A stretch of DNA of 64,000 nt, taken from assembly GCA_965247115.1 (NCBI GenBank), contig CBDFGR010000003.1:451867-515866 (forward strand), given 5' to 3'. Position 1 is the stretch's first letter. Every line of letters starts with the position of its first letter. Below the pieces are notes generated by a model. It ran no database searches. It saw only the letters and a list, made by a program, of their open reading frames with translations, and was not told the DNA's origin. The DNA is from Myxococcota bacterium. Lineage in GTDB: Bacteria > Myxococcota_A > UBA9160 > SZUA-336. Shown piece by piece: positions 9,100-59,024 of the stretch. The position numbers and the translations under genes were made by a program.

Positions 9100-9228
9100 C
9101 GCAAGGGGTGGATCCAATTCAATCCGCATCCTCGGGGCCTGCGCCCGAGGGTACGCAAAATGCCTACTCGTCTGTTCCTCGCTCTGATAGGGTCGGCTCC
9201 TTTCCCCCAACCGTCGAGGAGACCTCCA

Positions 9229-9921
9229 ATGCCCTTGATCCAACTTCTCCGCGTGTCCGTACACCCGCGCGGAGTTCAGAGCTACGAGAGACTCGTGCGC
9301 TACATCGCCGGGCGGGCGCGCGAGGATGCAGACACGTTCGGGTGGAGCACCCGCCAGGTCAACGGCGTCGAGGGTCAGCAGTACGTGTTCATCGCGCCGG
9401 CCGAGGGTTACGCCGAGCTCGCCGCCCGCGAGCCCATCGACGCCATGGTGCGGCGGCTGCTCGGTGAGGGCGACGGCAACGCCATCCTCGACGCACTCGC
9501 CGAGGGCATCGAGTCACAGAGCTTCAGCGTGTTGAGCCCCCGCGAGGACCTGAGCAATGCCCCACCACCCCTGGCTGCCCCTCCCCAGCTCGTCCACCAC
9601 ACGCTGGTCCACGTGCGCCCTGGCGGACAGGCCGCCTTCGAGGCGACGGTGGGCAAGGTCCTCGAGGCAGCGGCCAAGATCGGCGACAAGCGCCTGTTCC
9701 TGACGTCTCAGACGGTCATCGGGGACCTTGGCCAGTACAACATCGCCCAGCCCGTCGCGGATCCGGCCCAGCTGGACTCCCAGCTCACACCGCAGCAGCT
9801 GCTCGCCGAGGCCTTTGGCGAGCAGGAGGCCGGCGACATCATGGCAGCCGGACGGGAGCGCATGGAGAGCGTGGTCACCGCGCTGAGCGTCCTGCGTCCG
9901 GATCTCTCGGGTCAGGCCTGA
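9229..9921 (+). CDS. Hypothetical protein.
   Basis: ATG at 9229 preceded by GGAGAC; the upstream part of the 9160 ORF has junk composition. Confidence 0.4.
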   Translation: MPLIQLLRVSVHPRGVQSYERLVRYIAGRAREDADTFGWSTRQVNGVEGQQYVFIAPAEGYAELAAREPIDAMVRRLLGEGDGNAILDALAEGIESQSFSVLSPREDLSNAPPPLAAPPQLVHHTLVHVRPGGQAAFEATVGKVLEAAAKIGDKRLFLTSQTVIGDLGQYNIAQPVADPAQLDSQLTPQQLLAEAFGEQEAGDIMAAGRERMESVVTALSVLRPDLSGQA

Positions 9922-10021
9922 GCCGCTAGCGAGCCAAGCGGAGCGGCCGGTCGGGAGCGCCCCGGCCGGCCGCTTTCTGGTACAGACGTCCCGCAGCCCC
10001 GCCGAAGAGCGAGCTGTTGCC

Positions 10022-10594
10022 ATGCGCGTCGCGTGCCTGCTCCACATCGTGCTCTTTGCGTTCCTGGGCTGCGTGTCGAACGTCGCCTGGATCGCATTCG
10101 TCGAGGGGCGAACGCAGGAGTTCGCTGTCTCCGTCCTGACCCCGCTGGTGCGGATGGCGGTAGCGTTCTCGATGTTCGGATTTGCTGCTGGGGTGGTCGC
10201 CGCGCTCCTCCACGCGCCCCACTACGAGTACCGCTACGCCGGCCGGGCGGCGCCGCTCTTCTGGGGTCTGCTCTGGGCACTGTGCTGCGCAATCCCCGGA
10301 GCTCTGGCCGGGACGGCCGTGGCCTGGTTCGAACTCGGCTTCTTCACGCTCCTGCCGAGCCTGACCACGGGCCTCGCGGCGGGTGCCGGAGTCGGAACCG
10401 TCGTGTCGATCGTCAGCTGGATCAGCCTCACGCGAGGAGCCAAGCAAAGAAGACAGCTCCGCCGCCGACGGGCAACACCGACCCCGGCGCCGATCCGATC
10501 CGATAGTCGCGGAAGCGGACGCTGGAGAACGCCAGAGCAGAGCTCAGAGGCCGAGCCGGCCAAAGCACTGTCCGGAGAAGAAGAGCTCTGGTAG
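10022..10594 (+). CDS. Integral membrane protein (about 4 TM helices) with a charged C-terminal tail.
   Basis: Hydrophobic segments LLHIVLFAFLGCV, AVAFSMFGFAAGVVAALL, LFWGLLWALCCAIPGALAG and LAAGAGVGTVVSIVSWISL. Confidence 0.5.
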   Translation: MRVACLLHIVLFAFLGCVSNVAWIAFVEGRTQEFAVSVLTPLVRMAVAFSMFGFAAGVVAALLHAPHYEYRYAGRAAPLFWGLLWALCCAIPGALAGTAVAWFELGFFTLLPSLTTGLAAGAGVGTVVSIVSWISLTRGAKQRRQLRRRRATPTPAPIRSDSRGSGRWRTPEQSSEAEPAKALSGEEELW

Positions 10595-10647
10595 TCGGAC
10601 GTGGTCGAGGCTGGCAGGCGAGCAGCTCGGAGGGTGACGTCTAGAGC

Positions 10648-10674
10648 GGACGCATACCGCGCGACTATGCGTCC
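10648..10674. terminator. Hairpin between convergent genes.
   Basis: GGACGCATA-ccgcgcgac-TATGCGTCC inverted repeat overlapping the stop of the minus-strand gene. Confidence 0.3.
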
Positions 10675-11579
10675 GGCGCTGGGCTGCTCAGGATCAGCAG
10701 CCCCCGCCCGTAGTGGAAGATGAGCTCGAAGGCGTGGCCACCCTTCAGCCGCACACCCTCGCGCGCAGCACCGACCTCGAGATGGATCCCGTCATCGCCC
10801 AGGTTCGAGATCACGTTCTCGACAAGCGCGTGGAGCAGCTCGCCCAGGCCGTGCGCCAGCCACTCCTGCTCCGGGTCCTCCTCCGGCACGCCGACGAGGG
10901 CCATCGCGATCGCCTCTGCAGAGCTGCGATCCGTTGCCAGCGCGAGATCCAGCCCGGCCACGCCTCCAACCGAGAGCGTGGCCGCGTGTGCGAACTCGCT
11001 GGTTCCCTCCCAGGGCTGATCCGACCCGGTCTTGGCGGGTGCGTTCAGCGCGCGCAGCGACAGCTTTGGCAGCAGCTCGAGCGTGCGCTCTGCAATGGCG
11101 ACTCCGCGTAACGCCTCGGGCAGGACCCGGTTCTCCGGCGCGTAGCCGCTCTGCTCGGCCTCGAAGCGGTCGAGTAGACCCTTCAGACGATCGCGATCCA
11201 GCGCGCCGAGCTCCACCAGCGCCTCCCCCACGCGAAGCTGGGCGGCTTCCTGGCGCTGCAGCAGCTCGGAGACCTGTCCGGAGGTCAGCAGCTCGAGCTC
11301 GATGGCGAGCTCGCCGAAGAGGCGATCCGTCCTTCGCTGGGCCAGGTTGATGCGTTCGGCCTGGGCCTCCGTCAGGTAGCCGGACCAACTCGCCCACTCG
11401 CCGAGCTTGCGGTTCCGCTCGCTCTGCAGATCGAGGGCTTCGAGGAGCGCGGCCTCGCTGATCTCGCCCGAGCTCACGAGGAATTGACCGAAGAACTGGA
11501 CTGACATCCCACGGGGCGAATCGACGGCGGCCTGGTGGATCTTTACGAGCGCGCCCTCGCGTGCCCTTTGCGGTACCAT
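10665..11579 (-). CDS. Protein with two GspE-N/MshEN-like repeats and a C-terminal CheX/CheC-like domain.
   Basis: Duplicated motif FGQFLVSSGEISEAALLEALDLQ and FGELAIELELLTSGQVSELLQRQ (LGExLVxxGxI(S/T)xxQLxxALxxQ type); C-terminal LAHGLGELLHALVENVISNL resembles the CheX GELxNMxxG core. Start at M7 or M31 of the track ORF. Confidence 0.45.
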   Translation of the reverse strand: MVPQRAREGALVKIHQAAVDSPRGMSVQFFGQFLVSSGEISEAALLEALDLQSERNRKLGEWASWSGYLTEAQAERINLAQRRTDRLFGELAIELELLTSGQVSELLQRQEAAQLRVGEALVELGALDRDRLKGLLDRFEAEQSGYAPENRVLPEALRGVAIAERTLELLPKLSLRALNAPAKTGSDQPWEGTSEFAHAATLSVGGVAGLDLALATDRSSAEAIAMALVGVPEEDPEQEWLAHGLGELLHALVENVISNLGDDGIHLEVGAAREGVRLKGGHAFELIFHYGRGLLILSSPAPDA

Positions 11580-48187: not shown

Positions 48188-49479
48188 CCGGGCTGCTGCA
48201 GTAGAAACAGGCTCAGTGCGGGCCAGTACGTGAATACGAGCACGAGCCCCAGCAGCAGTACGAAGAACGGGATGGTCGCTCGGTACACCTCGACGACGGG
48301 TCGCTCGAAGCGATAGCTCGAGATGAACAGGTTCATCCCCACCGGCGGAGTGATGTAGCCGATCTGCATGTTCGCGAGGAACACGATGCCCAGGTGGACC
48401 GGGTGAATGCCGTATCCGATCGCAATCGGGAGAATGATGGGAACGATGATCACGATCGCGGAGAAGATGTCGAGCATCATGCCGAGGGCGAGCAGAAAGC
48501 AGTTCAGCAGGATGAGAAACGTCCACTTGTCTGTGACCTGGCCGCGGATCAGCTCGAAGAGTCGCAGCGGGACCTCAGTGTCGATCATGTAGCTGGTCGA
48601 CGCGAGGGAGACCGAAAGGATGATCAGAATGCCGCCCACCAGAACCATGGACTCCCGCGTCACCTCGAGCAGCTTCTGCAACGAGATCTCGCGCCGAATC
48701 AGGACCTCAACGACCAGCGTGTATAGCGCGGTGACCGCGGCCGCCTCGGACAGAGCGAGGTAGCCGCCGTAGATCCCACCGAGAACGACGAACGGCAACG
48801 GCAGCTCCCAGCCGGAATCGCGCAAGGCCTCGCGCGTCTCGCGCCAGGTGTGCGAGGCGCTCGGTAGCGCGTCTCGAGGCACCTTGCCCTGGAACACGCT
48901 CCAGAGCGAGAGCACCAGCAGCATGGCGAGGCCCGGCAGGAGGCCGGCCCGGAAGAGATCGTCGATCCGCACGGGCTGGCCGAGGCTGAGCTGCTGCGCG
49001 ACGACACCGTAGAGGATCAGCGGAAGGGCCGGCGCGAAGAGCAGGCCTAGGCTTCCTGAGGTGGTGATGAGGCCGAGGCTGAAGCGTTCCGCATAGCCCG
49101 CCTGCCTGAGCGCCGGGTACAGGACGCCCCCGAGCGCCACGATCGTCACTCCCGACGCCCCTGTAAACGCCGTGAAGAGAGCGCAGGTAACCAGCGACAC
49201 CACGGCGAGCCCGCCCCGGAGCCAGCCGAGCAGGGAGTTCGTCAACCGAACCAGGCGCCGCGGTGCACCGCTCTCGCCGAGGATGTAGCCCGCGAAGGTG
49301 AAGAGTGGAATCGCCAAAAGAACCGGGACATCCGTGATGCTGTAGAGATTGATCGCGACGACCGCGAGATCGATGCCCTCGCGCCAGAACCCGATCAGCG
49401 CGCCGGCAGCAATGATCGCGTAGAGCGGCGCCCCCAGAAGCGCGAGGACCAGCAGCGCCGCGGTGACGAGAAGCGTCAA
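48184..49479 (-). CDS. dctM: TRAP transporter large permease.
   Basis: 431 aa, 12+ TM, conserved DctM N-terminus MTLLVTAALLVLALLGAPLYAIIAAGALIGF and GASGVTIVALGGVLYPAL. Confidence 0.9.
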   Translation of the reverse strand: MTLLVTAALLVLALLGAPLYAIIAAGALIGFWREGIDLAVVAINLYSITDVPVLLAIPLFTFAGYILGESGAPRRLVRLTNSLLGWLRGGLAVVSLVTCALFTAFTGASGVTIVALGGVLYPALRQAGYAERFSLGLITTSGSLGLLFAPALPLILYGVVAQQLSLGQPVRIDDLFRAGLLPGLAMLLVLSLWSVFQGKVPRDALPSASHTWRETREALRDSGWELPLPFVVLGGIYGGYLALSEAAAVTALYTLVVEVLIRREISLQKLLEVTRESMVLVGGILIILSVSLASTSYMIDTEVPLRLFELIRGQVTDKWTFLILLNCFLLALGMMLDIFSAIVIIVPIILPIAIGYGIHPVHLGIVFLANMQIGYITPPVGMNLFISSYRFERPVVEVYRATIPFFVLLLGLVLVFTYWPALSLFLLQQPG

Positions 49480-49988
49480 GAGGGCGACTGCGGGGAGACC
49501 AGCGCGCGGATGTAGAGCGCCGACGAGATCAGCGCGCGTAGCGCGATCACAAAGAAGGCCAGCGGAAGGATCAGCTCGAACGGCCAGGCGGGGAAGCGAG
49601 CGAACGCGCTGACCTGCGCCTCGTAATCCAGCGCTACGAAGCGGACCGAGTGGTAGGCAACCACTGCGGCCACCGCGGCGGCGAACAGGTTCGTACAGGC
49701 TCGCGCCAGCAACAGGCGCACCGGAGATAGCGCCCCGGACAACACGTCTACGCTGATGTGACGGTCGTCGCGGCTCGCCGCCATGGCACCGAGCAGCCCG
49801 ACCCAGAGCACGAGGACTCGGAGCAGCGGGTCACCCCACGCTATGCCCGAGTCAAAGAAGTTGCGCAGGACGATCTGGACCGACGCCAGCAGGACCAGAA
49901 CTCCCACGAACGCGACCAGCACGGCGTCTTCGAGGCGCCGCAGCGCTCGGAGGAAGAGCCCGAGTCGCCCCGCTCCGCCAGCGGCCAT
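49476..49988 (-). CDS. dctQ: TRAP transporter small permease.
   Basis: 170 aa, 4 TM. The start is the ATG overlapping the dctP stop; the upstream 124 codons of the track ORF are junk. Confidence 0.7.
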   Translation of the reverse strand: MAAGGAGRLGLFLRALRRLEDAVLVAFVGVLVLLASVQIVLRNFFDSGIAWGDPLLRVLVLWVGLLGAMAASRDDRHISVDVLSGALSPVRLLLARACTNLFAAAVAAVVAYHSVRFVALDYEAQVSAFARFPAWPFELILPLAFFVIALRALISSALYIRALVSPQSPS

Positions 49989-51007
49989 CACTCGCTCGGG
50001 GACGGCGAACGGTTGCGATAGGTTTCGAGATGTCCCTGAAGCTCCTCGATCATCTCGTCGGAGTAGTAGGCCTCGGCGCGTACCCTGGCCAGCGCTGCAT
50101 CCGCCACGTCTTGCCAGCGCTTCAGCTCGTCGGGAGAGCCGGCGACGAACTCGATCCCCTGGCTTCTGAGGGCACGCTTCGCGCCCTCGTCGCTCGTACG
50201 ATTCCGCTCGTCCAGGCGCATGCCGGAGCGCTGCGTCACTTCCTGGAGGATGGCCTGGTCGGCTTCGCTGAGCTTCGCGAAGGCCCTGCCATCGACGGCG
50301 AGCACGCCAGACAGGTACATCAATGGAACATCGGTCAGGTAGCGCACCCGGGTGTGCCATTGGAAGGCAATGCAGGCGCCTGGCGAGGCCGCCACCGTGT
50401 CGATGAGTCCCGTCTGCAGGCCCGTGTACACATCCGCAAGGGGAAGCGGGACTGGAGAGACTCCCGCGAGGTCGAGCGCGATCTGGCTGAGCCGATCATC
50501 CTCGAGCACCCAGACCCGCGCTCCGGGCAGATCGTCGAGGGTCTGGACCGGCTTGTTGGAGAGCAGATACGCGAAGCCTCCCTCGCTGATGGCGAGGGCT
50601 ACCATGCCCGCACTCCGCAGCCCCGCCTGGATCCGGTGATCCATGCGGGCGCGGACGTAGTCGACCTCTTCGTAGGAGTGGAAGAGGAATGGCAGCCCGT
50701 AGATCTCCGTGTCGCGATACAGGTCGGTCAAGCTGCTGCTGGTAAAGGCACCGCCGTGCAGCTGCCCGATGCGGATCTTCCTCAGCACCGCCTTCTCCGT
50801 CCCCATCACGCCACCGGGGTAGAACTTGAGCTTGACCCGACCCTCCGTCCGCTGCTCGATCTCGCTGGCCGCGCCGCGCATCTCCTTCATCCACGTGCTG
50901 CCCTCCGGGACGACGGTCGCGATCTTTAGGGTTGCAGCGCGACTCTCTCCGGAGAAGCCCAGCAGCGCGCCAAGCAGCGCCAGGGTCAGCGGTGTCCGAA
51001 GCCCCAT
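49988..51007 (-). CDS. dctP: TRAP transporter substrate-binding protein (DctP/TatP type).
   Basis: Signal peptide, then LKIATVVPEGSTWMKEM...KLKFYPGGVMG, typical of DctP-family SBPs; 339 aa. Confidence 0.85.
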   Translation of the reverse strand: MGLRTPLTLALLGALLGFSGESRAATLKIATVVPEGSTWMKEMRGAASEIEQRTEGRVKLKFYPGGVMGTEKAVLRKIRIGQLHGGAFTSSSLTDLYRDTEIYGLPFLFHSYEEVDYVRARMDHRIQAGLRSAGMVALAISEGGFAYLLSNKPVQTLDDLPGARVWVLEDDRLSQIALDLAGVSPVPLPLADVYTGLQTGLIDTVAASPGACIAFQWHTRVRYLTDVPLMYLSGVLAVDGRAFAKLSEADQAILQEVTQRSGMRLDERNRTSDEGAKRALRSQGIEFVAGSPDELKRWQDVADAALARVRAEAYYSDEMIEELQGHLETYRNRSPSPSE

Positions 51008-51016
51008 CGTGATTCC

Positions 51017-51871
51017 TTAGAAGTAGTCGTCGGCGTCCTGGAGGAGCTCGCGCGCCTGCTCCTGAGCGATGGTATTGCTCAGCGTCAGATCTCTTGCCAC
51101 GGGATCGGCGGCGAGCACCTGGTTCAGGAGAGCGTCGTGCAGCTCCCGGTCGAATACGAGCATGGCGTACTTCTGCGCAAAGAGCACCTTGGCCATCAGG
51201 TTCCGATCCCGCGACAGCTCGATCGCCCGCTCGAAGTGCCGCCGCCCTACCTCGGGCTCGCCTCCCAGCGCGGAAGGGAGGAGGGTCGCCAGCACCCCGA
51301 GGTAGAGATAGGCGCTTCCGTTCTCGTAGCCAGGCTCGAGCTCCACAACCCGCTGCAGCGACGCCTCGATCTTCGGAACCTCGGCCACCGCGGCCCAGTC
51401 GTCCGAATTCGCCTGGACCCAGCCTGCCCAGGAGACGGCGAAGCCGTAGAGCGCGGGGACATCGGAGCGGCGCAGCTCCGCCAGCCCGGGCTCGAACTCG
51501 CGGAAGGGTAGGTCGATGCGTGCGCACAGGTCCGAGCGACGCACACACAGCGCGCGGCGCCCATATCCCCTGCTTCGATCGGCCAGGCGCAGCGCGCGGG
51601 TCTCGTCGTCGACGAAGGCGGAGGCGTAGGCACCGTAGAGACTGGCGCCGGCAAGTAGCAGGTCCTGGTTGTCCGGCTCAGCATCGATCAGGCCGTCGAT
51701 CAACAGGAGGTACGCCGGGGCGCCGTCTCGAACCGTAGCAACGTCGGTCTGATTCAGAATCGCGCGGGAGACGCTGTCCGCCAGACCAGAGGTGGCCGAG
51801 CTCGCGAGGGCCGCACAGCCCGTCAGCGCGACGAGGGGAAGCAACTTGGCGACACGAGCAATCGCGCTCAA
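51017..51871 (-). CDS. TatT-family TPR lipoprotein (T-component of TPR-protein-associated TRAP transporters).
   Basis: TTG start at 51871 gives MSAIARVAKLLPLVALTGCAALA (lipobox LTGC). Helical TPR-like body ending ...ELLQDADDYF. It lies immediately upstream of dctPQM. The upstream 250 codons of the track ORF are junk. Confidence 0.55.
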   Translation of the reverse strand: MSAIARVAKLLPLVALTGCAALASSATSGLADSVSRAILNQTDVATVRDGAPAYLLLIDGLIDAEPDNQDLLLAGASLYGAYASAFVDDETRALRLADRSRGYGRRALCVRRSDLCARIDLPFREFEPGLAELRRSDVPALYGFAVSWAGWVQANSDDWAAVAEVPKIEASLQRVVELEPGYENGSAYLYLGVLATLLPSALGGEPEVGRRHFERAIELSRDRNLMAKVLFAQKYAMLVFDRELHDALLNQVLAADPVARDLTLSNTIAQEQARELLQDADDYF

Positions 51872-51975
51872 GCGCGCTGCGGAGGAGGCGCTGCTCTGGA
51901 GATCGACGCTTCCATGCTCCGCGCGCACCTTATCATCTCGATCGATCCCCCCGAGTACCGGACACCCGCGCGGCA

Positions 51976-52386
51976 CTACTCGGTCGGCAGCTCGCCCGCC
52001 CGCCAGCTTCTCATGTGACCCTGGAGGTCGCCGAGCTCGCGGAAGCCCGCAGTCTTCAGGCTCTCTTCCGCGATCCCGGCGCGCCGACCGGACTCGCAGT
52101 ACGTGATCACGCCGCGGTCCCGAAACTCCGCGATCTCCTCCGTGCGCCTCGGGAGCTCGTCGAAGGGAATGTTCACGGCCCCTGGCAGGTGGCCGGACGC
52201 GTACTCGCCCGGACTGCGCACGTCGAGCAGCAAAGGCCCCTCTCGCGAGCCGTCCTCCTCGATGAGGGCGAGCACTTCCTCCTGCGTATATTCGCGTACC
52301 GCTTCGTTCGCTGGGCTGCAGCAGAGGAGCACACCAACGAGCAGCGTCACTCCGAGACTCGGCACCTTCCCCCCCGCCTCCGTCAC
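51976..52386 (-). CDS. Secreted rhodanese-domain sulfurtransferase.
   Basis: Signal peptide; LLLDVRSPGEYASGHLPGAVNIP; active-site loop YCESGRRA. Confidence 0.8.
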   Translation of the reverse strand: MTEAGGKVPSLGVTLLVGVLLCCSPANEAVREYTQEEVLALIEEDGSREGPLLLDVRSPGEYASGHLPGAVNIPFDELPRRTEEIAEFRDRGVITYCESGRRAGIAEESLKTAGFRELGDLQGHMRSWRAGELPTE

Positions 52387-52640
52387 TGCTCAGTGGCAGC
52401 GGCAGTCTGGCCGCGCTCGTCGACCCAGCCGCGCGTCTCCATACACCGGTGAAGCGCGGCCTGGGTTGCCCTTTGCGCGCTTCGCTCCATTCCGCTGCGC
52501 GCCGCTTCGGAATCGCCGATTCCATTGGCGTAGCGGATGCATATTCTCCGATCTCGGTTGAGCTCCTCGGGAGTCGCACCCGCCCTCGTCCAGCTCGTGC
52601 TGACGCATGCGCCGAACGCGAGTGTGACAATGATCGCCAT
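52383..52640 (-). CDS. Small lipoprotein (85 aa).
   Basis: MAIIVTLAFGACVSTS lipobox. It is 4-nt coupled to the rhodanese gene. The rest of the 313-aa track ORF is junk. Confidence 0.4.
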   Translation of the reverse strand: MAIIVTLAFGACVSTSWTRAGATPEELNRDRRICIRYANGIGDSEAARSGMERSAQRATQAALHRCMETRGWVDERGQTAAATEQ

Positions 52641-52751: not shown

Positions 52752-53696
52752 ATGGCTCACTTGCGCGGTGGAACCCGAACCGCCCTGATCTCGGGCGCCC
52801 TTGCGCTCGTGCTTTGCTCGGCTGCGAGCGCAGAGCCGCACCGCAACGGCTTTGATCTCGCGTCGTCCAGCGTTCCCGTATACGAGATCTTGAACGGCGG
52901 TCCGCCCCGCGACGGGATCCCGGCGCTCACTCTTCCCCCGCTGGTCTCGGCCGCAGAGGCGCCCTGGCGGGATGAAGATCGAGTCATCGGCGTCACACTC
53001 GACGGCGAGAGTCGGGCCTACCCCATCGCCATGCTCGACTGGCACGAGCTGGTGAACGATCGCCTGGGGAGCCGCCACATCCTGGTCTCGTACTGCCCCT
53101 TGTGCGGGACCGGAATGGTCTTCGATCGGGAGATTGGCGGTCGGATTCGGATCTTCGGCGTGTCCGGGTTGCTCTACCAGTCGGACGTGCTCCTCTACGA
53201 CCGCCGCAGCGAGAGCCTCTGGTCTCAGATCGCTTCCGAGGCGATCACGGGACCGGAGCGCGGAAAGCGACTCGAGCTCCTGCGCTCCGCGCAGATTCCC
53301 TGGGGCGAGTGGCGAGAGCGACACCCCGACACGACGGCGCTGTCAGACGCCATTGGATACCGTCGCGACTACCGCAAGACGCCGTACGCCGGCTACTCGA
53401 CCTCCTCGCGACTGTTATTCCCCGCTCCGGTCGACCCCCGCTACCCCCCGAAGACCCCGACACTGGGCCTGCGCACCGCGGATGGGTCTGCGCGCGCGTA
53501 TCCGGCTCCCGAGCTCGCCGCCAGCGGGAGCAGAGTCGTGGAGAGCTTCGAGGGTCGGCGCATCGAGGTCTCGTACGACCAGGTCAGTCGAGCGTTCGAG
53601 GTGGACGCACCTCCCGAGATTGAAGTGATCGAAGGGTACTGGTTCGCCTGGACCGCGTTTCACCCGGAGTCAACGGTCTACAGGGCAAGCAGATAG
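52752..53696 (+). CDS. DUF3179-family secreted protein.
   Basis: Signal peptide; GVSGLLYQSDVLLYDRRSESLWSQ matches the DUF3179 hallmark; 314 aa. Confidence 0.7.
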   Translation: MAHLRGGTRTALISGALALVLCSAASAEPHRNGFDLASSSVPVYEILNGGPPRDGIPALTLPPLVSAAEAPWRDEDRVIGVTLDGESRAYPIAMLDWHELVNDRLGSRHILVSYCPLCGTGMVFDREIGGRIRIFGVSGLLYQSDVLLYDRRSESLWSQIASEAITGPERGKRLELLRSAQIPWGEWRERHPDTTALSDAIGYRRDYRKTPYAGYSTSSRLLFPAPVDPRYPPKTPTLGLRTADGSARAYPAPELAASGSRVVESFEGRRIEVSYDQVSRAFEVDAPPEIEVIEGYWFAWTAFHPESTVYRASR

Positions 53697-53740: not shown

Positions 53741-54526
53741 ATGACGGATCGTTCCTGGAAGAAGAAGCTGAGCTGGGGGTTGGCGCTGGCGGGGCTCGTT
53801 CTTCTCGGCGCCTGGGGAGTGGGCGCGCGGACCGGGCTTCTGAGAGCACCGGAGACCCTCAATCCGTGCGCTGCAGGGACGATCAACCCCTGCGTGGCAA
53901 AGACCCTCAATCCTTGCGCCGCGAAGACGCTCAATCCCTGCGCCGCCAAGACCCTCAACCCTTGCGCGGCCAAGACCCTGAACCCGTGTGCCGCAAAAAC
54001 GCTGAACCCCTGTATGGCGAAGACTCTGAATCCCTGCGCGATGAAGGCGGCGAATCCGTGCAACCCCTGCGGCGGTGCGATGGTCGACGCAGCCCGCTTC
54101 AAGCAGCCTGCCGGAATGACACTCGCTCGGGGGTCGAAGGCGCATCTGGTCGCCCGGGGCGAGGAGCTGTGGAACGATCGCACGCTCGGCAAGTCCGGCC
54201 TGGCCTGCGCAAACTGCCACGTCAACAACTACCTGCAGATGCAGTCGAGCTTCGCCGAACCGTACCCGCACTACGTCGCCATGGCGGCCCAGCAAGGAGG
54301 GGTCGACGAGGTCAGCGCCGCGGAGATGGTGCAGTTCTGCATGCTGGTGCCCATGGCAACGGACCCGCTACCGTGGAACTCCGAGGAGCTCGCCTCCCTG
54401 GCCGCGTGGGTGGAGAACATCCAGCCGGGCTACGTACCGCTGGCAGAGACGATGACCAACCCGTGCAATCCGTGCGGCGCCGGCAAGAACCCGTGCAGCC
54501 CCCGGAGCAATCCCTGTAGCCGCTGA
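53741..54526 (+). CDS. Mono-heme c-type cytochrome with an N-terminal tandem Cys-heptad ('KTLNPCA') repeat array and an NPC-rich C-terminal tail.
   Basis: Signal/TM LSWGLALAGLVLLGAWGV. Repeats: NPCAAGTI NPCVAKTL NPCAAKTL NPCAAKTL NPCAAKTL NPCAAKTL NPCMAKTL NPCAMKAA NPCNPCGGA. Single CxxCH (ACANCH). C-terminal NPCNPCGAGKNPCSPRSNPCSR. Confidence 0.7.
   Translation: MTDRSWKKKLSWGLALAGLVLLGAWGVGARTGLLRAPETLNPCAAGTINPCVAKTLNPCAAKTLNPCAAKTLNPCAAKTLNPCAAKTLNPCMAKTLNPCAMKAANPCNPCGGAMVDAARFKQPAGMTLARGSKAHLVARGEELWNDRTLGKSGLACANCHVNNYLQMQSSFAEPYPHYVAMAAQQGGVDEVSAAEMVQFCMLVPMATDPLPWNSEELASLAAWVENIQPGYVPLAETMTNPCNPCGAGKNPCSPRSNPCSR
53855..54075 (+). repeat. Imperfect 21-bp tandem repeat array (~10 units) inside the cytochrome gene, encoding the 7-aa Cys repeats.
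   Basis: Units such as accctcaatccttgcgccgcgaag / acgctcaatccctgcgccgccaag / accctgaacccgtgtgccgcaaaa differ mainly at synonymous third positions. Confidence 0.8.
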
Positions 54527-54564: not shown

Positions 54565-55851
54565 GTGGGCGGCTGCGGGGTCGAGGCGTTCTTGTTCTAC
54601 GGCTGGGTCATCGTTGCGGTCACTTTCCTGACGCAGTTCGTGGCAGTCGGGACCACCTTCTACTCGTTCGGCGTGCTGCAGAAGCCGTTCGCGGAGGACC
54701 TCGGCGGCTCGCGTATGGCCGTGGGCGCCGCGATGCCTCTCATGATGATCGTCGTCGGGCTGGCGGGTCCCTTCATCGGGCGCGCCATCGACAGAGGCTC
54801 GATCCGTGCCGTGATGCTACTCGGTGTCGGGGCGCTCTCCGCGGGCTTTCTCACACTTTCCCGCGTAGAAGAGCTCTGGCAGTTCTACCTGGTGTTCGGG
54901 CTGGTGATCTCGCTGGGGATGGCCCTGGTGGGCGGCATCGCGAACACGGCACTCGTGGCTACCTGGTTCGTATGGCGCCGTGGCACCGCGCTCGGGATCT
55001 CGCAGATCGGGACCACGATCTCGGGAATGGTCACGGCTTACGCCGCGAGCTGGCTCGTAGCCGAGCTGGGCTGGCGTGGTACCGCCGTGGTCTATGGCGT
55101 CGCTCCGCTCGCCCTGCTGCTGCCTGTGGTCTGGTTTCTGGTGGTGGCTCGTCCGGAAGACCGCCAGCTGCGACCGGACGGGGGTGCGCATCGCCATGGA
55201 GAGCACGAGCCGCCCAGCCCGACCGCATGGACGTTCGGACGGGTACTGCGTGAGCGGACCATCTGGCTCATCGCGCTCGTCGTCGGCCTCAGCTTCGCCG
55301 GGACCACAGCCGTCATTCTGCAGATTTACCCACACGTCACCGACCTCGGCTACAGCGCCTCCCAGGCCGCGGCCGTCCTCTCCGTGATGGCCGGCACGGG
55401 GGCGCTCGGAAAAATCCTGTTCGGGTGGCTGGCGGACCGCTACGACAGGCGCGGCTGCATGTGGGGCGCGATTCTGTTCCAGGTTCTCGGGCTGGTCGGG
55501 ATCATAAACGCCGGAACGCACGTGTCTCTGCTCGGCTCGGGAGCCCTGTTCGGACTCGGATTCGGAGGCGTCCTCCCGCTCTGGGGCGTCCTGCTCGGCG
55601 CAGCCTACGGTCGTGCGGAGTTCGGACGCATCCTCGGACTCATGTCGCCCATGATGATCCCGTTTGAGACGCTCGGCATTCCCTTCGCGGGCTGGGTGTT
55701 CGACAGGACCGGCAGCTACAACGGCGCCTTCCTGACCTTCCTCGGCCTGTACGCCATCGCGGCCGTTGCGCTGGTCTTCCTTCGTCTACCGGCCCGCGCC
55801 ACCCTGGAGGCTCGCGAGCGGCTGCCGGATCTCCTCGAGCACGTAGACTGA
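54565..55851 (+). CDS. MFS transporter.
   Basis: 12 predicted TM segments in two 6-helix halves with a central cytoplasmic loop (RPEDRQLRPDGGAHRHGEHEPPS); 428 aa. Confidence 0.85.
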   Translation: MGGCGVEAFLFYGWVIVAVTFLTQFVAVGTTFYSFGVLQKPFAEDLGGSRMAVGAAMPLMMIVVGLAGPFIGRAIDRGSIRAVMLLGVGALSAGFLTLSRVEELWQFYLVFGLVISLGMALVGGIANTALVATWFVWRRGTALGISQIGTTISGMVTAYAASWLVAELGWRGTAVVYGVAPLALLLPVVWFLVVARPEDRQLRPDGGAHRHGEHEPPSPTAWTFGRVLRERTIWLIALVVGLSFAGTTAVILQIYPHVTDLGYSASQAAAVLSVMAGTGALGKILFGWLADRYDRRGCMWGAILFQVLGLVGIINAGTHVSLLGSGALFGLGFGGVLPLWGVLLGAAYGRAEFGRILGLMSPMMIPFETLGIPFAGWVFDRTGSYNGAFLTFLGLYAIAAVALVFLRLPARATLEARERLPDLLEHVD

Positions 55852-57057
55852 CACATCGGTGCGTCGGCCTGCTTCCCGGATCAGGGCCAACGCCTCCTGA
55901 TCGCTCAGGCTCGCAGACAGACTCTCAAACACGCCGCGGTAGTGGTAGTCGGGGTCGACTCGAACCCTGGCGACGAGCTCGCGTGCGGTGTCAGCACGGG
56001 CGACCTCGTACTCGAGCCGGACCGACTCCCCTGGCAGCACGCGGGTGTCGAAGATCTCCACCAACCGCGCCAGGTCGACCTCTCTACCGATCGTACCCAC
56101 GACACGGGTCTCCTCGAGCTCTTGCCCGTCGCCAGCGACCTGCACCACCTCCAGGAAGACCCGCGGGGTGACGTAGGTCGGGAAGGCGTGACCCACGTCA
56201 CGGTTCGCGAGCACGAGTGTCGCGCGCAGCACGGCAGCATCCGGGGCGCTGGGGAAGAACTCGACCTCCACCGCCTGTCTCACCATCTCGGGATCGTGGA
56301 TGCCCTGCCACAGGTGTGCGCGATCTGGCATGTGGCAGTCCTGACACTGACGACCGGCCAGGGCCTGGGGACTCCGCTCCCACTCGCGAAACGTGTTCTC
56401 GAGCGGCTTGCCATTCACTCCCGGATCATCGAAGAACTGGTGGCATTCCGCACAGAAGCGACTCTCGAGGTACTCGTCGCGGATCTCGAAGCCCCCGTGC
56501 GGCAGGGGATCGGCCTGCGGACCTGCGTCGGCGCGCCGGGGCGGTCCGAAGGTGCGGTGCCCTCGCCGGTGGCAGCCTGCGCAGACGAGGCCTTGCGAGC
56601 GAAGCTCCGCATCGAAGCTGGGATTGGGGCGAAGCGACGCGTCGAAGGGCTGCTGCTCGCCTAGCGGAGCATGGCAGGAGAGACAGTTCCGTACCTGAAA
56701 CGGCGGGGCGAGGCTGCCCTCGATGAGTTGCCCGGCCAGACCTGGCGAGTAGGCAGCAGCGTGAAGCGAGCCCCGCCATTCCGCGAACTGCTCGGGATGA
56801 CACGCGCCGCACGTCGCGGGATCGAGCGAGGCCTCGACTGCGGAGAAGCTCGCGGGTGGCGGTCCTTGCGCGGCGGCGGGAATGCTCCAGTGCGCGGCCA
56901 GAAAGGGCCCGAGCGTGCCAAGACGCTGCGTCGTGTCGTCCGCGGCGACGGGCTCCGGTGGCGCGAGCTCACCGTTCCCGCAGCTTGCCAGGACGAGGAC
57001 CGGAGCCAGCAGACAGCAGCGCCGGAGCAAACCTCGCCTTGCGGAAACAGCGGGCAC
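55786..57057 (-). CDS. Pentaheme c-type cytochrome lipoprotein.
   Basis: GTG start ~57057 (VPAVSARRGLLRRCCLLAPVLVLASCG, lipobox LASCG). Five CxxCH motifs: CGACH, CLSCH, CAGCH, CAECH, CQDCH. The N-terminal 430 codons of the 861-aa track ORF are antisense of hemN and junk. Confidence 0.75.
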   Translation of the reverse strand: MPAVSARRGLLRRCCLLAPVLVLASCGNGELAPPEPVAADDTTQRLGTLGPFLAAHWSIPAAAQGPPPASFSAVEASLDPATCGACHPEQFAEWRGSLHAAAYSPGLAGQLIEGSLAPPFQVRNCLSCHAPLGEQQPFDASLRPNPSFDAELRSQGLVCAGCHRRGHRTFGPPRRADAGPQADPLPHGGFEIRDEYLESRFCAECHQFFDDPGVNGKPLENTFREWERSPQALAGRQCQDCHMPDRAHLWQGIHDPEMVRQAVEVEFFPSAPDAAVLRATLVLANRDVGHAFPTYVTPRVFLEVVQVAGDGQELEETRVVGTIGREVDLARLVEIFDTRVLPGESVRLEYEVARADTARELVARVRVDPDYHYRGVFESLSASLSDQEALALIREAGRRTDVSVYVLEEIRQPLASLQGGAGR

Positions 57058-57186
57058 TTCAGCAGCCAATACGCGACGCCATTCGCACAGGTTACGGCGT
57101 CTGTCGCCGGAAGATCGAGCGTAGCCCTGCCTGGCGGCTCCGCTCGACAAATCGCAGACTGCAGCACTCGGGCCACGGGGGCGGAC

Positions 57187-58590
57187 GTGACAGGGACAGC
57201 AACGGATGACTTTGCGATCCCGGATCTGGAGAGCGTCCGACGCCTGATCCCGAAGTACGAGCGACCGGGCCCGCGCTACACCAGCTATCCAACTGCGCCG
57301 GTGTGGAGCGAGGAGTTCGGAGAGGACGAGCTCCGCGACGCGCTCGCGAGGGCCACGGACCGACCGCTCTCGCTCTACATCCACATCCCGTTCTGCGAGC
57401 GTCTCTGCACCTTCTGCGCGTGCAACCGCACGATCACGCGCGACCACTCCGTAGCCGGCCCCTACCTCGATTCGCTCGAAGACGAGGCCCGAAAGGTCGC
57501 GGAGACCATCGGTGGAGAGCGCCCCTGCGTCCAGCTCGCGGTCGGGGGGGGCACACCGACCTATCTCTCGGAGCTCGAGCTCGCGCGCATGTGCGAGATC
57601 GCAGACGCTCACTTCCCACCGCGCCCCGGTGCGGAGCGCAGCATCGAGGTCGATCCCCGCGTGACCCGGCGCGAGCAGCTCGAGGTGCTGGCGGAGCACG
57701 GCTTCAATCGCATCAGCCTCGGAGTTCAGGACATGTCGCCGAAGGTGCAGAAGGCCATCAACCGGGTCCAGCCGCGCGCCATGACCGAGGAGCTCACGGA
57801 GAGCGCGCGCGCACTGGGTTTTGGCTCCGTCAACTTCGATCTGATCTACGGTCTGCCCTTCCAGACCACCGACTCCTTCGACGACACGCTCACTCAGGTG
57901 ATCGAGCTGCGGCCCGACCGCATCGCCCTGTACAGCTACGCACACGTGACCTGGATCTCGAAGCAGCAGAGGGGCTTCGAGAACAAGGACCTGCCGTCGG
58001 CCGAGCAAAAGCTCGCGATCTTCCTGCTGGCGAACGAACGCCTGGCGGAAGCGGGCTACCTGTTCTTCGGGCTCGACCACTTCGCGCTGCCGGACGACGA
58101 GCTCTCGAGCGCCGCGCGCGGCGGCGACCTGCGCCGCAACTTCATGGGCTACACGACGAAGGCCAGCGTGGATCTGATCGGTCTCGGCGCCAGCGGCATC
58201 TCGGAGCTGTCCGACGCCTACGCGCAGTCGCTGCGTACGCCCGCGGAGTGGAGCGAACGCATCCGCGCGGGCAGGCTGGCCACGATGCGGGGCTGGTCGC
58301 TGTCCGAGGACGACCTGCGACGCAAGTGGCTCATTCAACGGCTCATGTGCCAGGGCGAGATCAGCCCGCACGCGTACGAGGACAGCTTTGGGGAGCCGCT
58401 GTCTGCACGCATCCCCTCGCTGGAAGAACGGCTGGCGCCGCTCGTCGCGGATGGCCTGCTCTCGACCCGGGGAGACGAGTACGAGCTCACGCCGCGCGGT
58501 CGCGTGTTCCTGCGACCCGTGGCCATGACCTTCGACGCGTATCTCAGCGAGCAGGACTCCTCGCGTCCAAGATTCTCCAGCACGCTGTGA
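57187..58590 (+). CDS. hemN: Oxygen-independent coproporphyrinogen III oxidase (radical SAM).
   Basis: GTG start 57187 (VTGTATDDFAIPDLESVRRLIPKYERPGPRYTSYPTA, canonical HemN N-terminus). Radical SAM YIHIPFCERLCTFCACN; GGGTPTYL. The upstream 170 codons of the track ORF are antisense of the cytochrome gene. Confidence 0.9.
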   Translation: MTGTATDDFAIPDLESVRRLIPKYERPGPRYTSYPTAPVWSEEFGEDELRDALARATDRPLSLYIHIPFCERLCTFCACNRTITRDHSVAGPYLDSLEDEARKVAETIGGERPCVQLAVGGGTPTYLSELELARMCEIADAHFPPRPGAERSIEVDPRVTRREQLEVLAEHGFNRISLGVQDMSPKVQKAINRVQPRAMTEELTESARALGFGSVNFDLIYGLPFQTTDSFDDTLTQVIELRPDRIALYSYAHVTWISKQQRGFENKDLPSAEQKLAIFLLANERLAEAGYLFFGLDHFALPDDELSSAARGGDLRRNFMGYTTKASVDLIGLGASGISELSDAYAQSLRTPAEWSERIRAGRLATMRGWSLSEDDLRRKWLIQRLMCQGEISPHAYEDSFGEPLSARIPSLEERLAPLVADGLLSTRGDEYELTPRGRVFLRPVAMTFDAYLSEQDSSRPRFSSTL

Positions 58591-59024
58591 CTCTGCTGTG
58601 GCTGAAAGCGCTGCACCTGATCGCGGTGGTGGCCTGGTTCGCGGGGCTCTTCTACATGTTCCGCCTTTTTGTCTACCACGCGGAGAACACGGAAAAGCCG
58701 GAGGTCACCGACGTGCTCAAGACGATGGCCTGGCGCCTGTATCGCGTGATCACCACACCCGCGCTGATCGCGAGCTTCGTGTTCGGGCTCGGAATGGTCG
58801 CGCTCCAACCGGGCTACCTGAGCCTTGGCTGGTTCCAGGCGAAGCTCGGGCTCGTGCTGGGTCTCGCCGGCTACCACGGCTACGTCGGCAGGGTGCGGCG
58901 CCGCTTTGCCGCCGACGACGTGTACCTGACTTCGCGCCAGTGCAGGATTCGCAACGAGATCCCGACGCTGTTCCTGATCGCAATCGTGCTGCTGGCGGTC
59001 CTGAGACCCCTCGCCGGCGCGTAG
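58587..59024 (+). CDS. hemJ: Protoporphyrinogen IX oxidase HemJ (PF03653/UPF0093).
   Basis: GTG overlapping the hemN stop (GTGA); LLWLKALHLIAVVAWFAGLFYMFRLFVYHAE matches the HemJ N-terminus; 145 aa, 4 TM. Confidence 0.8.
   Translation: MTLLWLKALHLIAVVAWFAGLFYMFRLFVYHAENTEKPEVTDVLKTMAWRLYRVITTPALIASFVFGLGMVALQPGYLSLGWFQAKLGLVLGLAGYHGYVGRVRRRFAADDVYLTSRQCRIRNEIPTLFLIAIVLLAVLRPLAGA

Follow-up and report, generated by a model that had tools for sequence, protein, structure and literature searches.

Cysteine-ligated c-type hemes are rare, and the cases that have been studied, SoxAX, TsdA and MccSep, catalyse unusual sulfur chemistry. In the SoxA family the cysteine ligand forms S-thiosulfonate adducts, and in the mechanism proposed for SoxAX these are resolved via thiol-disulfide exchange with SoxY (PMC4423706). 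TsdA and TsdBA belong to the same family of His/Cys hemes that make or break sulfur-sulfur bonds via an adduct of the ligand cysteine, and in TsdA thiosulfate is bound, and the S-thiosulfonate stabilised, by Arg109, Arg119 and Ser127, at -14, -4 and +4 from that cysteine (PMC4423706). In Geobacter, polysulfide and selenite are reduced in the periplasm by MccSep, which breaks S-S bonds at a heme ligated by His122 and Cys239, with the participation of a selenocysteine, Sec325 (bioRxiv 10.1101/2025.11.18.688581). Here we analyse a window of 64,000 nucleotides from a Myxococcota bacterium (GenBank assembly GCA_965247115.1, contig CBDFGR010000003.1, positions 451,867 to 515,866 of the forward strand), in which a gene at 53741..54526 encodes a c-type cytochrome whose heme domain stands between two tails of repeated Asn-Pro-Cys (NPC). 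The cytochrome belongs to an unnamed, widespread family whose tails, related free NPC peptides and gene cluster are uncharacterised.

The NPC cytochrome resembles SoxAX/SoxYZ in its PF21342 domain, in having, besides CxxCH, a cysteine where SoxA has its heme ligand, and in the idea of a flexible cysteine-bearing arm offered to a Cys-ligated heme. It differs in having one heme domain, in a methionine at -4 from the cysteine, where TsdA has an arginine that the catalytic domain of SoxA shares, and in cysteine arms that are carried in cis, with 14 or more cysteines in NPC repeats instead of a single GGCGG end. TsdA, in turn, is a diheme protein without repeat tails.

Cysteine-rich exported proteins offer a second set of comparisons. 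The Sec-exported Cys-repeat proteins modified by MNIO enzymes include the bufferins and the oxazolins, the latter with EGKCG repeats and up to 58 cysteines (PMC11626156, PMC12452194); bufferins are periplasmic copper chelators under SigF/NrsF regulation (PMC11626156). NPC proteins are likewise periplasmic, signal peptide-bearing, Cys-rich and sometimes repetitive, with extracytoplasmic function (ECF) sigma/NrsF genes and DoxX nearby. However, NPC cytochromes have no adjacent MNIO/DUF2063 genes and carry a covalent heme domain, and none of the precursor families described so far features the NPC motif. Metallothioneins and phytochelatins share with the tails the richness in cysteine and lysine, the lack of aromatic residues and a regular cysteine spacing (NPCNPC yields CxxC), whereas the NPC tails are periplasmic, have Asn-Pro before each cysteine, contain less cysteine (15%) and are fused to a cytochrome. 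Finally, TfcP of Myxococcus xanthus is a one-heme His/Cys cytochrome c that aids pilus assembly, with a potential of about -310 mV (PMC8833165). It shares the single heme, the distal cysteine, a C-terminal extension and the Myxococcota host, and sets a precedent for a low-potential non-respiratory role. We rejected it as a relative since fold class and context differ: TfcP has a mitochondrial-type fold and a charged-helix extension, is confined to pilus clusters of Myxococcales and lacks NPC repeats.

An exported one-heme cytochrome between two NPC tails

The features of the gene and its product are as follows.

53741..54526, plus strand: NPC-repeat cytochrome gene, 261 residues plus stop (listing of open reading frames, ORFs, and sequence)
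53741..53827, plus strand: predicted Sec signal peptide, residues 1-29, with KKK, a hydrophobic helix and VGA/RT cleavage (sequence; AlphaFold2 helix 7-25)
53852..54070, plus strand: N-terminal NPC tract, residues 38-110, nine 24-bp/8-residue units (x-T-L-N-P-C-A-A; 53852..54067) and a final NPC that runs to 54070, 10 Cys
54071..54445, plus strand: globular SoxA/TsdA-type cytochrome c domain, residues 111-235
54206..54220, plus strand: CxxCH heme-attachment motif C156-A-N-C159-H160, from the sequence, invariant in 85/85 genome-derived members
54338..54340, plus strand: Cys200 in EMVQFCM, candidate sixth (distal) heme ligand by alignment to SoxA Cys114
54458..54523, plus strand: C-terminal NPC tail NPCNPCGAGKNPCSPRSNPCSR, residues 240-261, 4 Cys

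An earlier note on this DNA had described a secreted or membrane-anchored c-type cytochrome between two Cys-repeat tracts, with a single CxxCH and a Cys-rich C-terminal tail. All of these elements are present, from the signal-like N-terminus to the tail at residues 240-261, and the one CxxCH lies well within the mature protein. We found no frameshift; the reading frame is backed by homologues (best E = 1e-165 to 3e-165), and a GGAGGA Shine-Dalgarno sequence precedes the ATG by 7 nucleotides. Homologues show clear AxA sites or lipoboxes, and the probable cleavage site in the window protein was read from the sequence. In the AlphaFold2 model, built on an alignment of 89 sequences, residues 111-232 have a predicted local distance difference test (pLDDT) score above 90, while the N-terminal tract stays below 50 and the C-terminal tail at about 50 or lower; both tails are thus predicted to be disordered. 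The NPC protein is best read as a one-heme c-type cytochrome that is exported by Sec to the periplasm and has a globular core between two disordered basic tails.

The repeat had first been taken for a heptad encoded by 21 bp of DNA. This does not hold: the unit is an octad of 24 bp. The N-terminal tract reads, in order, ETLNPCAA, GTINPCVA, four times KTLNPCAA, KTLNPCMA, KTLNPCAM, KAANPC and NPC. Tandem Repeats Finder reported a period of 24 with 7.8 copies. When the DNA is compared with itself, the matching fraction is 0.70 at a lag of 24, 0.69 at 48 and 0.21 at 21, and successive cysteines are spaced by 8,8,8,8,8,8,8,8,3. The same note was right that drift between units is mostly synonymous and that selection acts on the peptide and not on the DNA: pairwise codon differences among all nine units are synonymous in 124 cases versus 74 non-synonymous ones, and the four units with the identical peptide KTLNPCAA are four distinct DNA versions that are 75-88% identical. 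The repeat lies far above chance expectation: this ORF contains 14 NPC tripeptides, the 350 remaining six-frame ORFs of 100 residues or more in the window (80,118 residues) contain 0, and shuffled versions of the protein averaged 0.12 and never exceeded 3.

A protein database search with the full protein returned 704 relatives, all from metagenomes or metagenome-assembled genomes (MAGs) and either unnamed or called "cytochrome c". Statistics on motifs and tails of homologues refer to the top 120 of these. Asn-Pro directly precedes 1653 of about 1790 cysteines in their tails, which consist of A 18%, P 16%, N 16%, C 15%, K 8% and G 8%; acidic residues are nearly absent and aromatic residues almost lacking, with none among the twelve commonest tail residues. 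NPC tracts occur on both sides of the core in nearly all of the 120, numbering 0-23 NPC on the N-terminal side and 0-15 on the C-terminal side. Exactly one CxxCH is present in each, and EMVxFCM in 116/120.

We rejected membership in the Cornifin/SPRR family (Pfam PF02389), a family of mammalian cornified-envelope proteins whose Gln/Lys-rich ends serve cross-linking by transglutaminase. Its model scores 46 bits, above the Pfam threshold, on the repeat tract only (residues 37-109). The model responds because both sequences are Pro/Cys/Lys octapeptide repeats, and the match is a low-complexity artefact: the host is bacterial, the protein combines a signal peptide with a heme domain, and the Gln-rich termini are lacking. 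Automated annotation will wrongly label NPC proteins as "Cornifin".

The heme domain and its candidate cysteine ligand

Pfam PF21342 (SoxA/TsdA cytochrome c) matches residues 139-226 with 33.5 bits against a gathering score of 27 and is precomputed on nearly all of the top 120 homologues; the NCBIfam SoxA match was sub-threshold. The best PDB sequence match, with the single protein and with a 34-sequence core profile alike (profile E = 2.1e-5), is the first heme domain of Rhodovulum SoxA, and the top structural matches are TsdBA, TsdA and SoxA. Judged by sequence, the heme domain is a new branch of the known SoxA/TsdA family.

The SoxA alignment places H160 on His80 and Cys200 (EMVQFCM) on Cys114, the two axial ligands of SoxA heme 1 in the SoxAX structure. 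Eleven residues (C156, C159, H160, Y175, P176, H177, M181, M196, C200, P204 and M205) are invariant in 85/85 genome-derived members from several phyla, and Met201, beside Cys200, varies among them. By the alignment and this conservation, Cys200 is probably the distal ligand of a His/Cys heme. A SoxA/TsdA domain with a conserved candidate Cys ligand provides a link to sulfur-sulfur bond chemistry.

Distribution of the family and the free-standing NPC module

A scan of one genome per species gave 293 matches, which span Myxococcota, Gemmatimonadota, Candidatus Entotheonella, Rokubacteria/Methylomirabilota, Burkholderiales, Gammaproteobacteria, Nitrospiraceae and others. Cultured carriers, which lend themselves to genetic work, are Motiliproteus sp. 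MSK22-1 (L089, 6112..12854) and Denitromonas iodatirespirans IR-12 (L056), each with the NPC cytochrome and a five-heme gene. In 84 non-duplicate loci, two or more NPC were counted in the C-terminal tail of 74 and in the N-terminal tail of 64, and none in 7. When the core alone was searched exhaustively against 1.84 billion cluster representatives, 252 of them matched at E <=1e-3.

Repeat copy number and period shift between close relatives while the core stays conserved, and copy number varies even among proteins 92% (P0002), 83% (P0004) and 75% (P0001) identical to that of the window. Periods of 8 (KTLNPCAA), 6 (NPCAAK), 5 and 3 (NPCNPC) occur in the family, with CGPCAP or CSPC variants, and N-P-C alone is constant across all four. 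A few core-family representatives bear Met-rich or CGAC-type tails. In two Pseudomonadales MAGs (L076, L086) and in P0279 and P0379, NPC is swapped for CGPC(AP), for KCGAC repeats or for Met-rich segments of the MMKKDGMM type; CGPC is the active-site motif of thioredoxin.

The repeat alone, used as query, returned 624 proteins, mostly of 75-190 residues, which consist of a signal peptide and little beyond the NPC repeat. In a few of them NPC tracts stand beside a small beta domain, TPR, LysM or the DUF2282 bufferin domain; the NPC-flanked small beta domain (P0154, P0202) gave only weak sub-threshold matches to PDZ_2, DUF5666 and CusF. As read from these matches, the NPC repeat is a free-standing module, found as stand-alone secreted peptides and also on other domains. 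No Pfam or NCBIfam model covers the tails, and a full-text literature search for the repeat strings gave only irrelevant matches, in keeping with the initial statement that no cytochrome of this architecture has been characterised.

A five-heme lipoprotein and DUF3179 as recurrent partners

Neighbours were counted as genes within 6 kb in 88 related loci. Many of these contigs end early, so that the counts are underestimates. Only two neighbours of the window gene persist in distant loci, a five-heme cytochrome and DUF3179.

55786..57071, minus strand: five-heme c-type cytochrome lipoprotein, convergent, with five CxxCH and lipobox LASC; probable TTG start at 57071
52752..53696, plus strand: DUF3179 protein, 314 residues, exported, upstream (Pfam PF11376, 257 bits)
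53094..53105, plus strand: CPLC (CxxC) motif of DUF3179, residues 115-118, conserved in cluster-associated copies

The mechanical ORF listing over-extends the five-heme ORF to 861 residues (55786..58371). The five-heme lipoprotein is the most conserved partner of the NPC cytochrome: a cytochrome of this kind (about 400-440 residues) is encoded within 6 kb in 41/88 loci and directly adjacent in 36, and where related loci are complete it is mostly the next gene. The family also adjoins stand-alone NPC peptides and a gene for an NPC-beta-domain-NPC protein; the five-heme protein at the latter site is 38% identical (E = 2e-85), and an ECF/zf-HC2 pair is found there too.

The five-heme protein is distantly homologous to MccSep. 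Its best PDB sequence match is MccSep (9wt8/9wt9, E = 8.5e-7), its best NCBIfam match, sub-threshold, ExtKL. The likeness comprises colinearity, five CxxCH, a C-terminal GHxxP-loop domain and similar length. However, in the alignment the window protein has L-E at C239-C240 of MccSep and V at U325. Five CxxCH are present in the window protein and in 35/36 relatives; the 36 relatives share five invariant non-motif histidines, at distal positions, and have no conserved extra cysteine. The five-heme protein thus looks like the MccSep heme wire without its catalytic thiol and selenol, and under the definition of the MccSep preprint, by which a conserved selenocysteine or cysteine is required, it is not a member. 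Both the heme-ligating Cys239 and the selenocysteine or cysteine at 325 are missing; it would have to be the NPC cytochrome that provides a His/Cys heme and nucleophilic thiols.

A DUF3179 gene is found no more than 6 kb away in 31/88 loci, in 16 of them as the direct neighbour. The window protein has a signal-like N-terminus, and the CPLC motif is conserved in 26 to 28 of the 30 cluster-associated DUF3179 proteins (28/30 and 26/30). DUF3179 is listed as a selenoprotein family with a UxxC/T motif (PMC9312934, PMC13188914), and its CxxC has the UxxC/T form of the selenocysteine-containing members, as judged by motif form and not by sequence alignment. This points to a redox-active or metal-binding pair. 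Our literature search for DUF3179 returned only selenoprotein lists and one table.

Wider gene context

The order of genes in the window is TRAP-T/TatT, rhodanese, DUF3179, NPC cytochrome, MFS, five-heme cytochrome (convergent), HemN and HemJ. The remaining neighbours that received coordinates in the feature list are given below.

54565..55851, plus strand: MFS transporter, downstream (Pfam MFS_1, 165 bits; 3/88 related loci)
51976..52386, minus strand: rhodanese-domain protein with an N-terminal hydrophobic segment, possible sulfurtransferase (Pfam PF00581, 66.8 bits)

The suggestion made earlier that the two flanking genes might be functionally related stands for DUF3179, which recurs, and falls for the MFS transporter, which is not conserved. 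The rhodanese gene is present in L001 and L009 and in 3/88 loci overall. MFS, rhodanese and TRAP-T were rejected as functional partners because they are kept in the nearest relatives only (2-3/88 loci). The rhodanese protein, encoded two genes upstream of the NPC cytochrome, has the active-site loop CESGRRAG; the Geobacter ext cluster also encodes a rhodanese-like protein, ExtH. Between rhodanese and DUF3179 lies an ORF of 85 residues (52383..52640, minus strand) with LAFGAC, a possible lipobox, and no Pfam match. Genes for a tripartite ATP-independent periplasmic (TRAP) transporter (DctQ-like, DctP and the TatT T-component; 49476..51910, minus strand) are syntenic only in the nearest relative, L001. 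Just beyond the five-heme gene, heme-synthesis genes adjoin the two cytochrome genes: HemN, a radical S-adenosylmethionine (SAM) oxygen-independent coproporphyrinogen oxidase (about 57187..58590, plus strand), and a UPF0093/HemJ-type protein (about 58587..59024, plus strand), both placed by synteny with L001, with coordinates estimated from the lengths of the L001 genes.

An extended cluster occurs in beta- and gammaproteobacteria and Rokubacteria (L082, L077, L047, L068), in the order (small NPC peptide), NPC cytochrome, DUF6969, EfeO-like cupredoxin-type protein, DUF302, Sulf_transp (YeeE/YedE) and DUF3179, with the five-heme gene and an ECF sigma factor close by. Sulf_transp was counted in 12 loci and DUF302 in 14. 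YeeE, DUF302 and DUF6969 were not found in the window, which of the conserved cluster genes has DUF3179 and the five-heme gene only. The full-text literature search returned no publication on DUF6969. Motiliproteus sp. MSK22-1 has the order AhpC/Redoxin, NPC peptide, NPC cytochrome, five-heme, cupredoxin-like, Sulf_transp and Aminotran_5; here the Redoxin is periplasmic, the transporter YeeE-like and the aminotransferase of the cysteine-desulfurase type. Stand-alone NPC peptides are also encoded in clusters L090 and L091. L090 has, right after DUF6969, a 536-residue KamA-type radical-SAM-like protein with CxxxCxxC (CFSFCTYC; 9105..10715) that we did not meet in other clusters. Other related loci contain DsbD_TM with thioredoxin, MsrA, or Oxidored_molyb in a pair with a ferric-reductase-type protein (of MsrPQ-like look) and DoxX. 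SelB adjoins the NPC-cytochrome gene in L003.

Several loci place the NPC module in the context of metals and envelope stress. In a MAG of Methylohalobius crimeensis (L092, 3620..7221) the bufferin operon reads DUF6969, BufA1(NPC), MNIO, DUF2063 and DoxX; in this one case an NPC tail ends a DUF2282 BufA1 precursor, and the operon connects DUF6969 and the NPC module with a system already known to chelate copper. An ECF sigma factor and an NrsF-like membrane protein adjoin the NPC cytochrome in L003 (by Pfam) and in L014, L015, L040 and L041 (by reading of the sequences). At other loci the ECF sigma factor is followed by an anti-sigma factor with an H-x3-C-x2-C motif of the zinc-finger type.

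Proposed function and alternatives

Two streams of evidence converge on thiol chemistry outside the cytoplasm. One concerns sulfur and selenium (SoxA/TsdA domain, MccSep-like partner, YeeE/YedE, DUF302, rhodanese, Aminotran_5, DUF3179), the other metals and stress (ECF/NrsF, the NPC bufferin, the shared DUF6969, cupredoxin-like proteins, DoxX, the MsrPQ-like pair, Met/His tails). The reading that we put forward, tentatively and as something short of an even chance, is that of a periplasmic array of thiols, cycled between redox states and serviced by a His/Cys heme together with a multiheme wire. The NPC tails would be the reversible array, whose cysteines would pair in disulfides or take up thiophilic cargo, either as persulfide, polysulfide or Se-S adducts or in thiolate-metal complexes. 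Cys200 on the heme would swap S-S bonds with tail cysteines, as SoxA does with the carrier cysteine of SoxY and TsdA and MccSep do with their substrates, and electrons would pass in or out via the adjacent five-heme lipoprotein. Because that partner keeps the heme wire and lacks the MccSep cysteine and selenocysteine, the catalytic thiols would be given to it in trans by the NPC protein. The CxxC protein DUF3179 would help thiol exchange, and the net effect would be a cytochrome-powered upkeep of the redox state of a Cys-rich periplasmic buffer or carrier. The data show the gene, its domain family, the conserved cysteine, the predicted disorder of the tails, the spread of the family and the recurrence of its neighbours; His/Cys ligation, thiol exchange between tails and heme, the direction in which electrons flow and the nature of the cargo, which would be either sulfane sulfur/selenium or copper-type metals, are inferences from them. 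Metal binding and disulfide chemistry by the tails, both raised in the earlier note, are live hypotheses. Of a second proposal we are slightly more doubtful still, namely that NPC polypeptides, free or as tails, are the substrate of an unrecognised cytochrome-powered periplasmic protein-thiol redox system, in which the electrons for a Cys-ligated heme would come from a bis-His five-heme lipoprotein, and this heme would in turn reduce or load the array of thiols.

Several observations weigh against the thiol-array reading. About 43% of the CxxCH-bearing core-family representatives (at 50% identity) have no xPC tails, and the heme domain must therefore work without them. M181, M196, M205 and H177 are as invariant as Cys200 and could ligate the heme in its place. 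By offset counting, without a residue alignment to TsdA, the positions of TsdA Arg109, Arg119 and Ser127 fall on G186, the invariant M196 and the invariant P204; with the thiosulfate-binding residues replaced, the domain is of the Cys-ligated SoxA family without the substrate pocket of TsdA. It is, moreover, most like the N-terminal heme-1 domain of SoxA, which is not known to be the catalytic one. Finally, the association with the five-heme family is one-sided, as that family often occurs without an NPC protein: a SoxA-like/NPC gene is present in only 19-20/80 metagenome loci found by the five-heme profile (about 75% without). Many of the loci L097-L174, with a five-heme gene and no NPC gene, have a shared soil-metagenome synteny with gamma-glutamyltransferase-like and aminopeptidase N-like ORFs (by eye) and are probably one lineage.

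A Sox-like sulfur or selenium pathway is possible, if somewhat unlikely. Here the NPC cysteines would bind their load covalently, as carrier arms in the manner of the C-terminal cysteine of SoxY. Oxidative loading of thiosulfate, sulfide or polysulfide on these arms, or their reductive unloading, would fall to the heme domain, the five-heme protein would play the role of SoxX or TsdB, and the YeeE/YedE transporter would import the products for assimilation or further oxidation. The SoxA/TsdA domain with its conserved cysteine and the MccSep-like partner fit this pathway, as do the rhodanese in the window, Aminotran_5 in Motiliproteus (L089), the selenoprotein affiliation of DUF3179 and SelB beside the gene in L003. 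The Sulf_transp and DUF302 genes of the beta-/gammaproteobacterial and Rokubacterial clusters, in the 12 and 14 loci mentioned above, also speak for it, since DUF302 and YeeE/YedE sit within the sox clusters of Sulfitobacter (PMC11034169) and YeeE-like SoxT proteins, which import sulfur, set a precedent (PMC11582611). However, the substrate-binding arginines of TsdA and SoxA are not conserved, SoxX, SoxYZ and SoxB were found neither by Pfam in the 17-kb syntenic locus L001 nor among the recurrent neighbour families of 84 loci, and the window itself is without YeeE, DUF302 and DUF6969. NPC tails are also attached to TPR, LysM, small beta-barrel and bufferin domains, which speaks for a module of general use and against a Sox-specific arm, and some tails are rich in Met or His, although methionine is unable to carry sulfane sulfur.

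We consider it unlikely that the NPC tails and peptides are simply a passive periplasmic metal buffer, that is, metallothionein- or phytochelatin-like chelators of Cu(I), Ag, Hg or Cd induced by envelope metal stress, with a heme that only alters the redox state of the metal or has an unrelated electron-transfer role. In its favour, an NPC-tailed BufA1 is part of a canonical bufferin operon (L092), ECF/NrsF-like and ECF/zinc-finger anti-sigma pairs stand beside the cytochrome, DUF6969 and the EfeO-like cupredoxin-type protein recur in clusters, and the tails are metallothionein-like in being Cys- and Lys-rich and aromatic-free, some enriched in Met and His (L070, L087) or purely Met-rich (P0379). 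But a strict Asn-Pro before nearly every cysteine is not expected of such a chelator, the residues between the cysteines of metallothioneins being variable, and the 13 Pfam-annotated loci contain no classical Cu, Hg or Cd resistance genes save weak fragments in L003. A passive buffer also leaves unexplained why the tails are so closely tied to a multiheme wire and to a Cys-ligated heme domain of low potential. Moreover, free periplasmic thiols oxidise unless they are actively reduced, which leads back to the redox-cycled thiol array.

Less probable again, and in our view improbable, is a precursor of the ribosomally synthesized and post-translationally modified peptide (RiPP) type, in which tail cysteines would be enzymatically converted before export, as bufferin cysteines are to thiooxazoles, with DUF6969 or an unrecognised enzyme as modifier. 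The working groups of the tails would in that case be something other than thiols. MNIO-modified Sec-exported Cys-repeat proteins are known (PMC11626156, PMC12452194), the invariant N-P-C context resembles a recognition motif, and DUF6969 accompanies both NPC cytochromes and the NPC-tailed bufferin operon. Yet MNIO/DUF692 and DUF2063 were found neither in the annotated neighbourhood of the window nor among the recurrent neighbour families of the 84 loci, but only in L092, and the window and its close relatives keep long tails without DUF6969. No radical-SAM enzyme or other maturase is conserved. Radical-SAM thioether maturation (sactipeptide or NxxC-type) was likewise rejected for want of a conserved radical-SAM neighbour: HemN fits heme synthesis and is not conserved, and the KamA-like protein is confined to L090.

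A structural or anchoring role, in which the tails would be flexible linkers or disulfide cross-linkers in the manner of cornifin/SPRR and tether the cytochrome to the envelope or a polymer without any redox or binding activity themselves, might be read from the Cornifin score of 46 bits and from predicted disorder on either side of unrelated domains, but is very improbable, since in this bacterial protein the match covers nothing but the low-complexity repeat, synonymous-only drift and the invariance of N-P-C over periods 3 to 8 indicate selection on a specific chemical motif, and stand-alone NPC peptides leave nothing to be anchored.

Implications

In this family a domain of the Cys-ligated type joins dozens of regularly spaced thiols, in at least eight major lineages, and the NPC motif provides a simple handle for searches. 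If the proposed thiol-array system exists, NPC polypeptides would constitute a rechargeable, gene-encoded chelator or carrier, comparable to phytochelatin or SoxY, that serves copper-type metals or sulfur/selenium, and a thiol system independent of the DsbD route of reductant import. It would give a function to the orphan families DUF3179, DUF6969 and DUF302 and to a catalytically "stripped" branch of MccSep, and would tie the envelope copper and oxidant stress regulons (ECF/NrsF) to sulfur-type heme chemistry. It would also show how a large protein-thiol pool stays functional in the oxidising periplasm by means of respiratory-type electron carriers.

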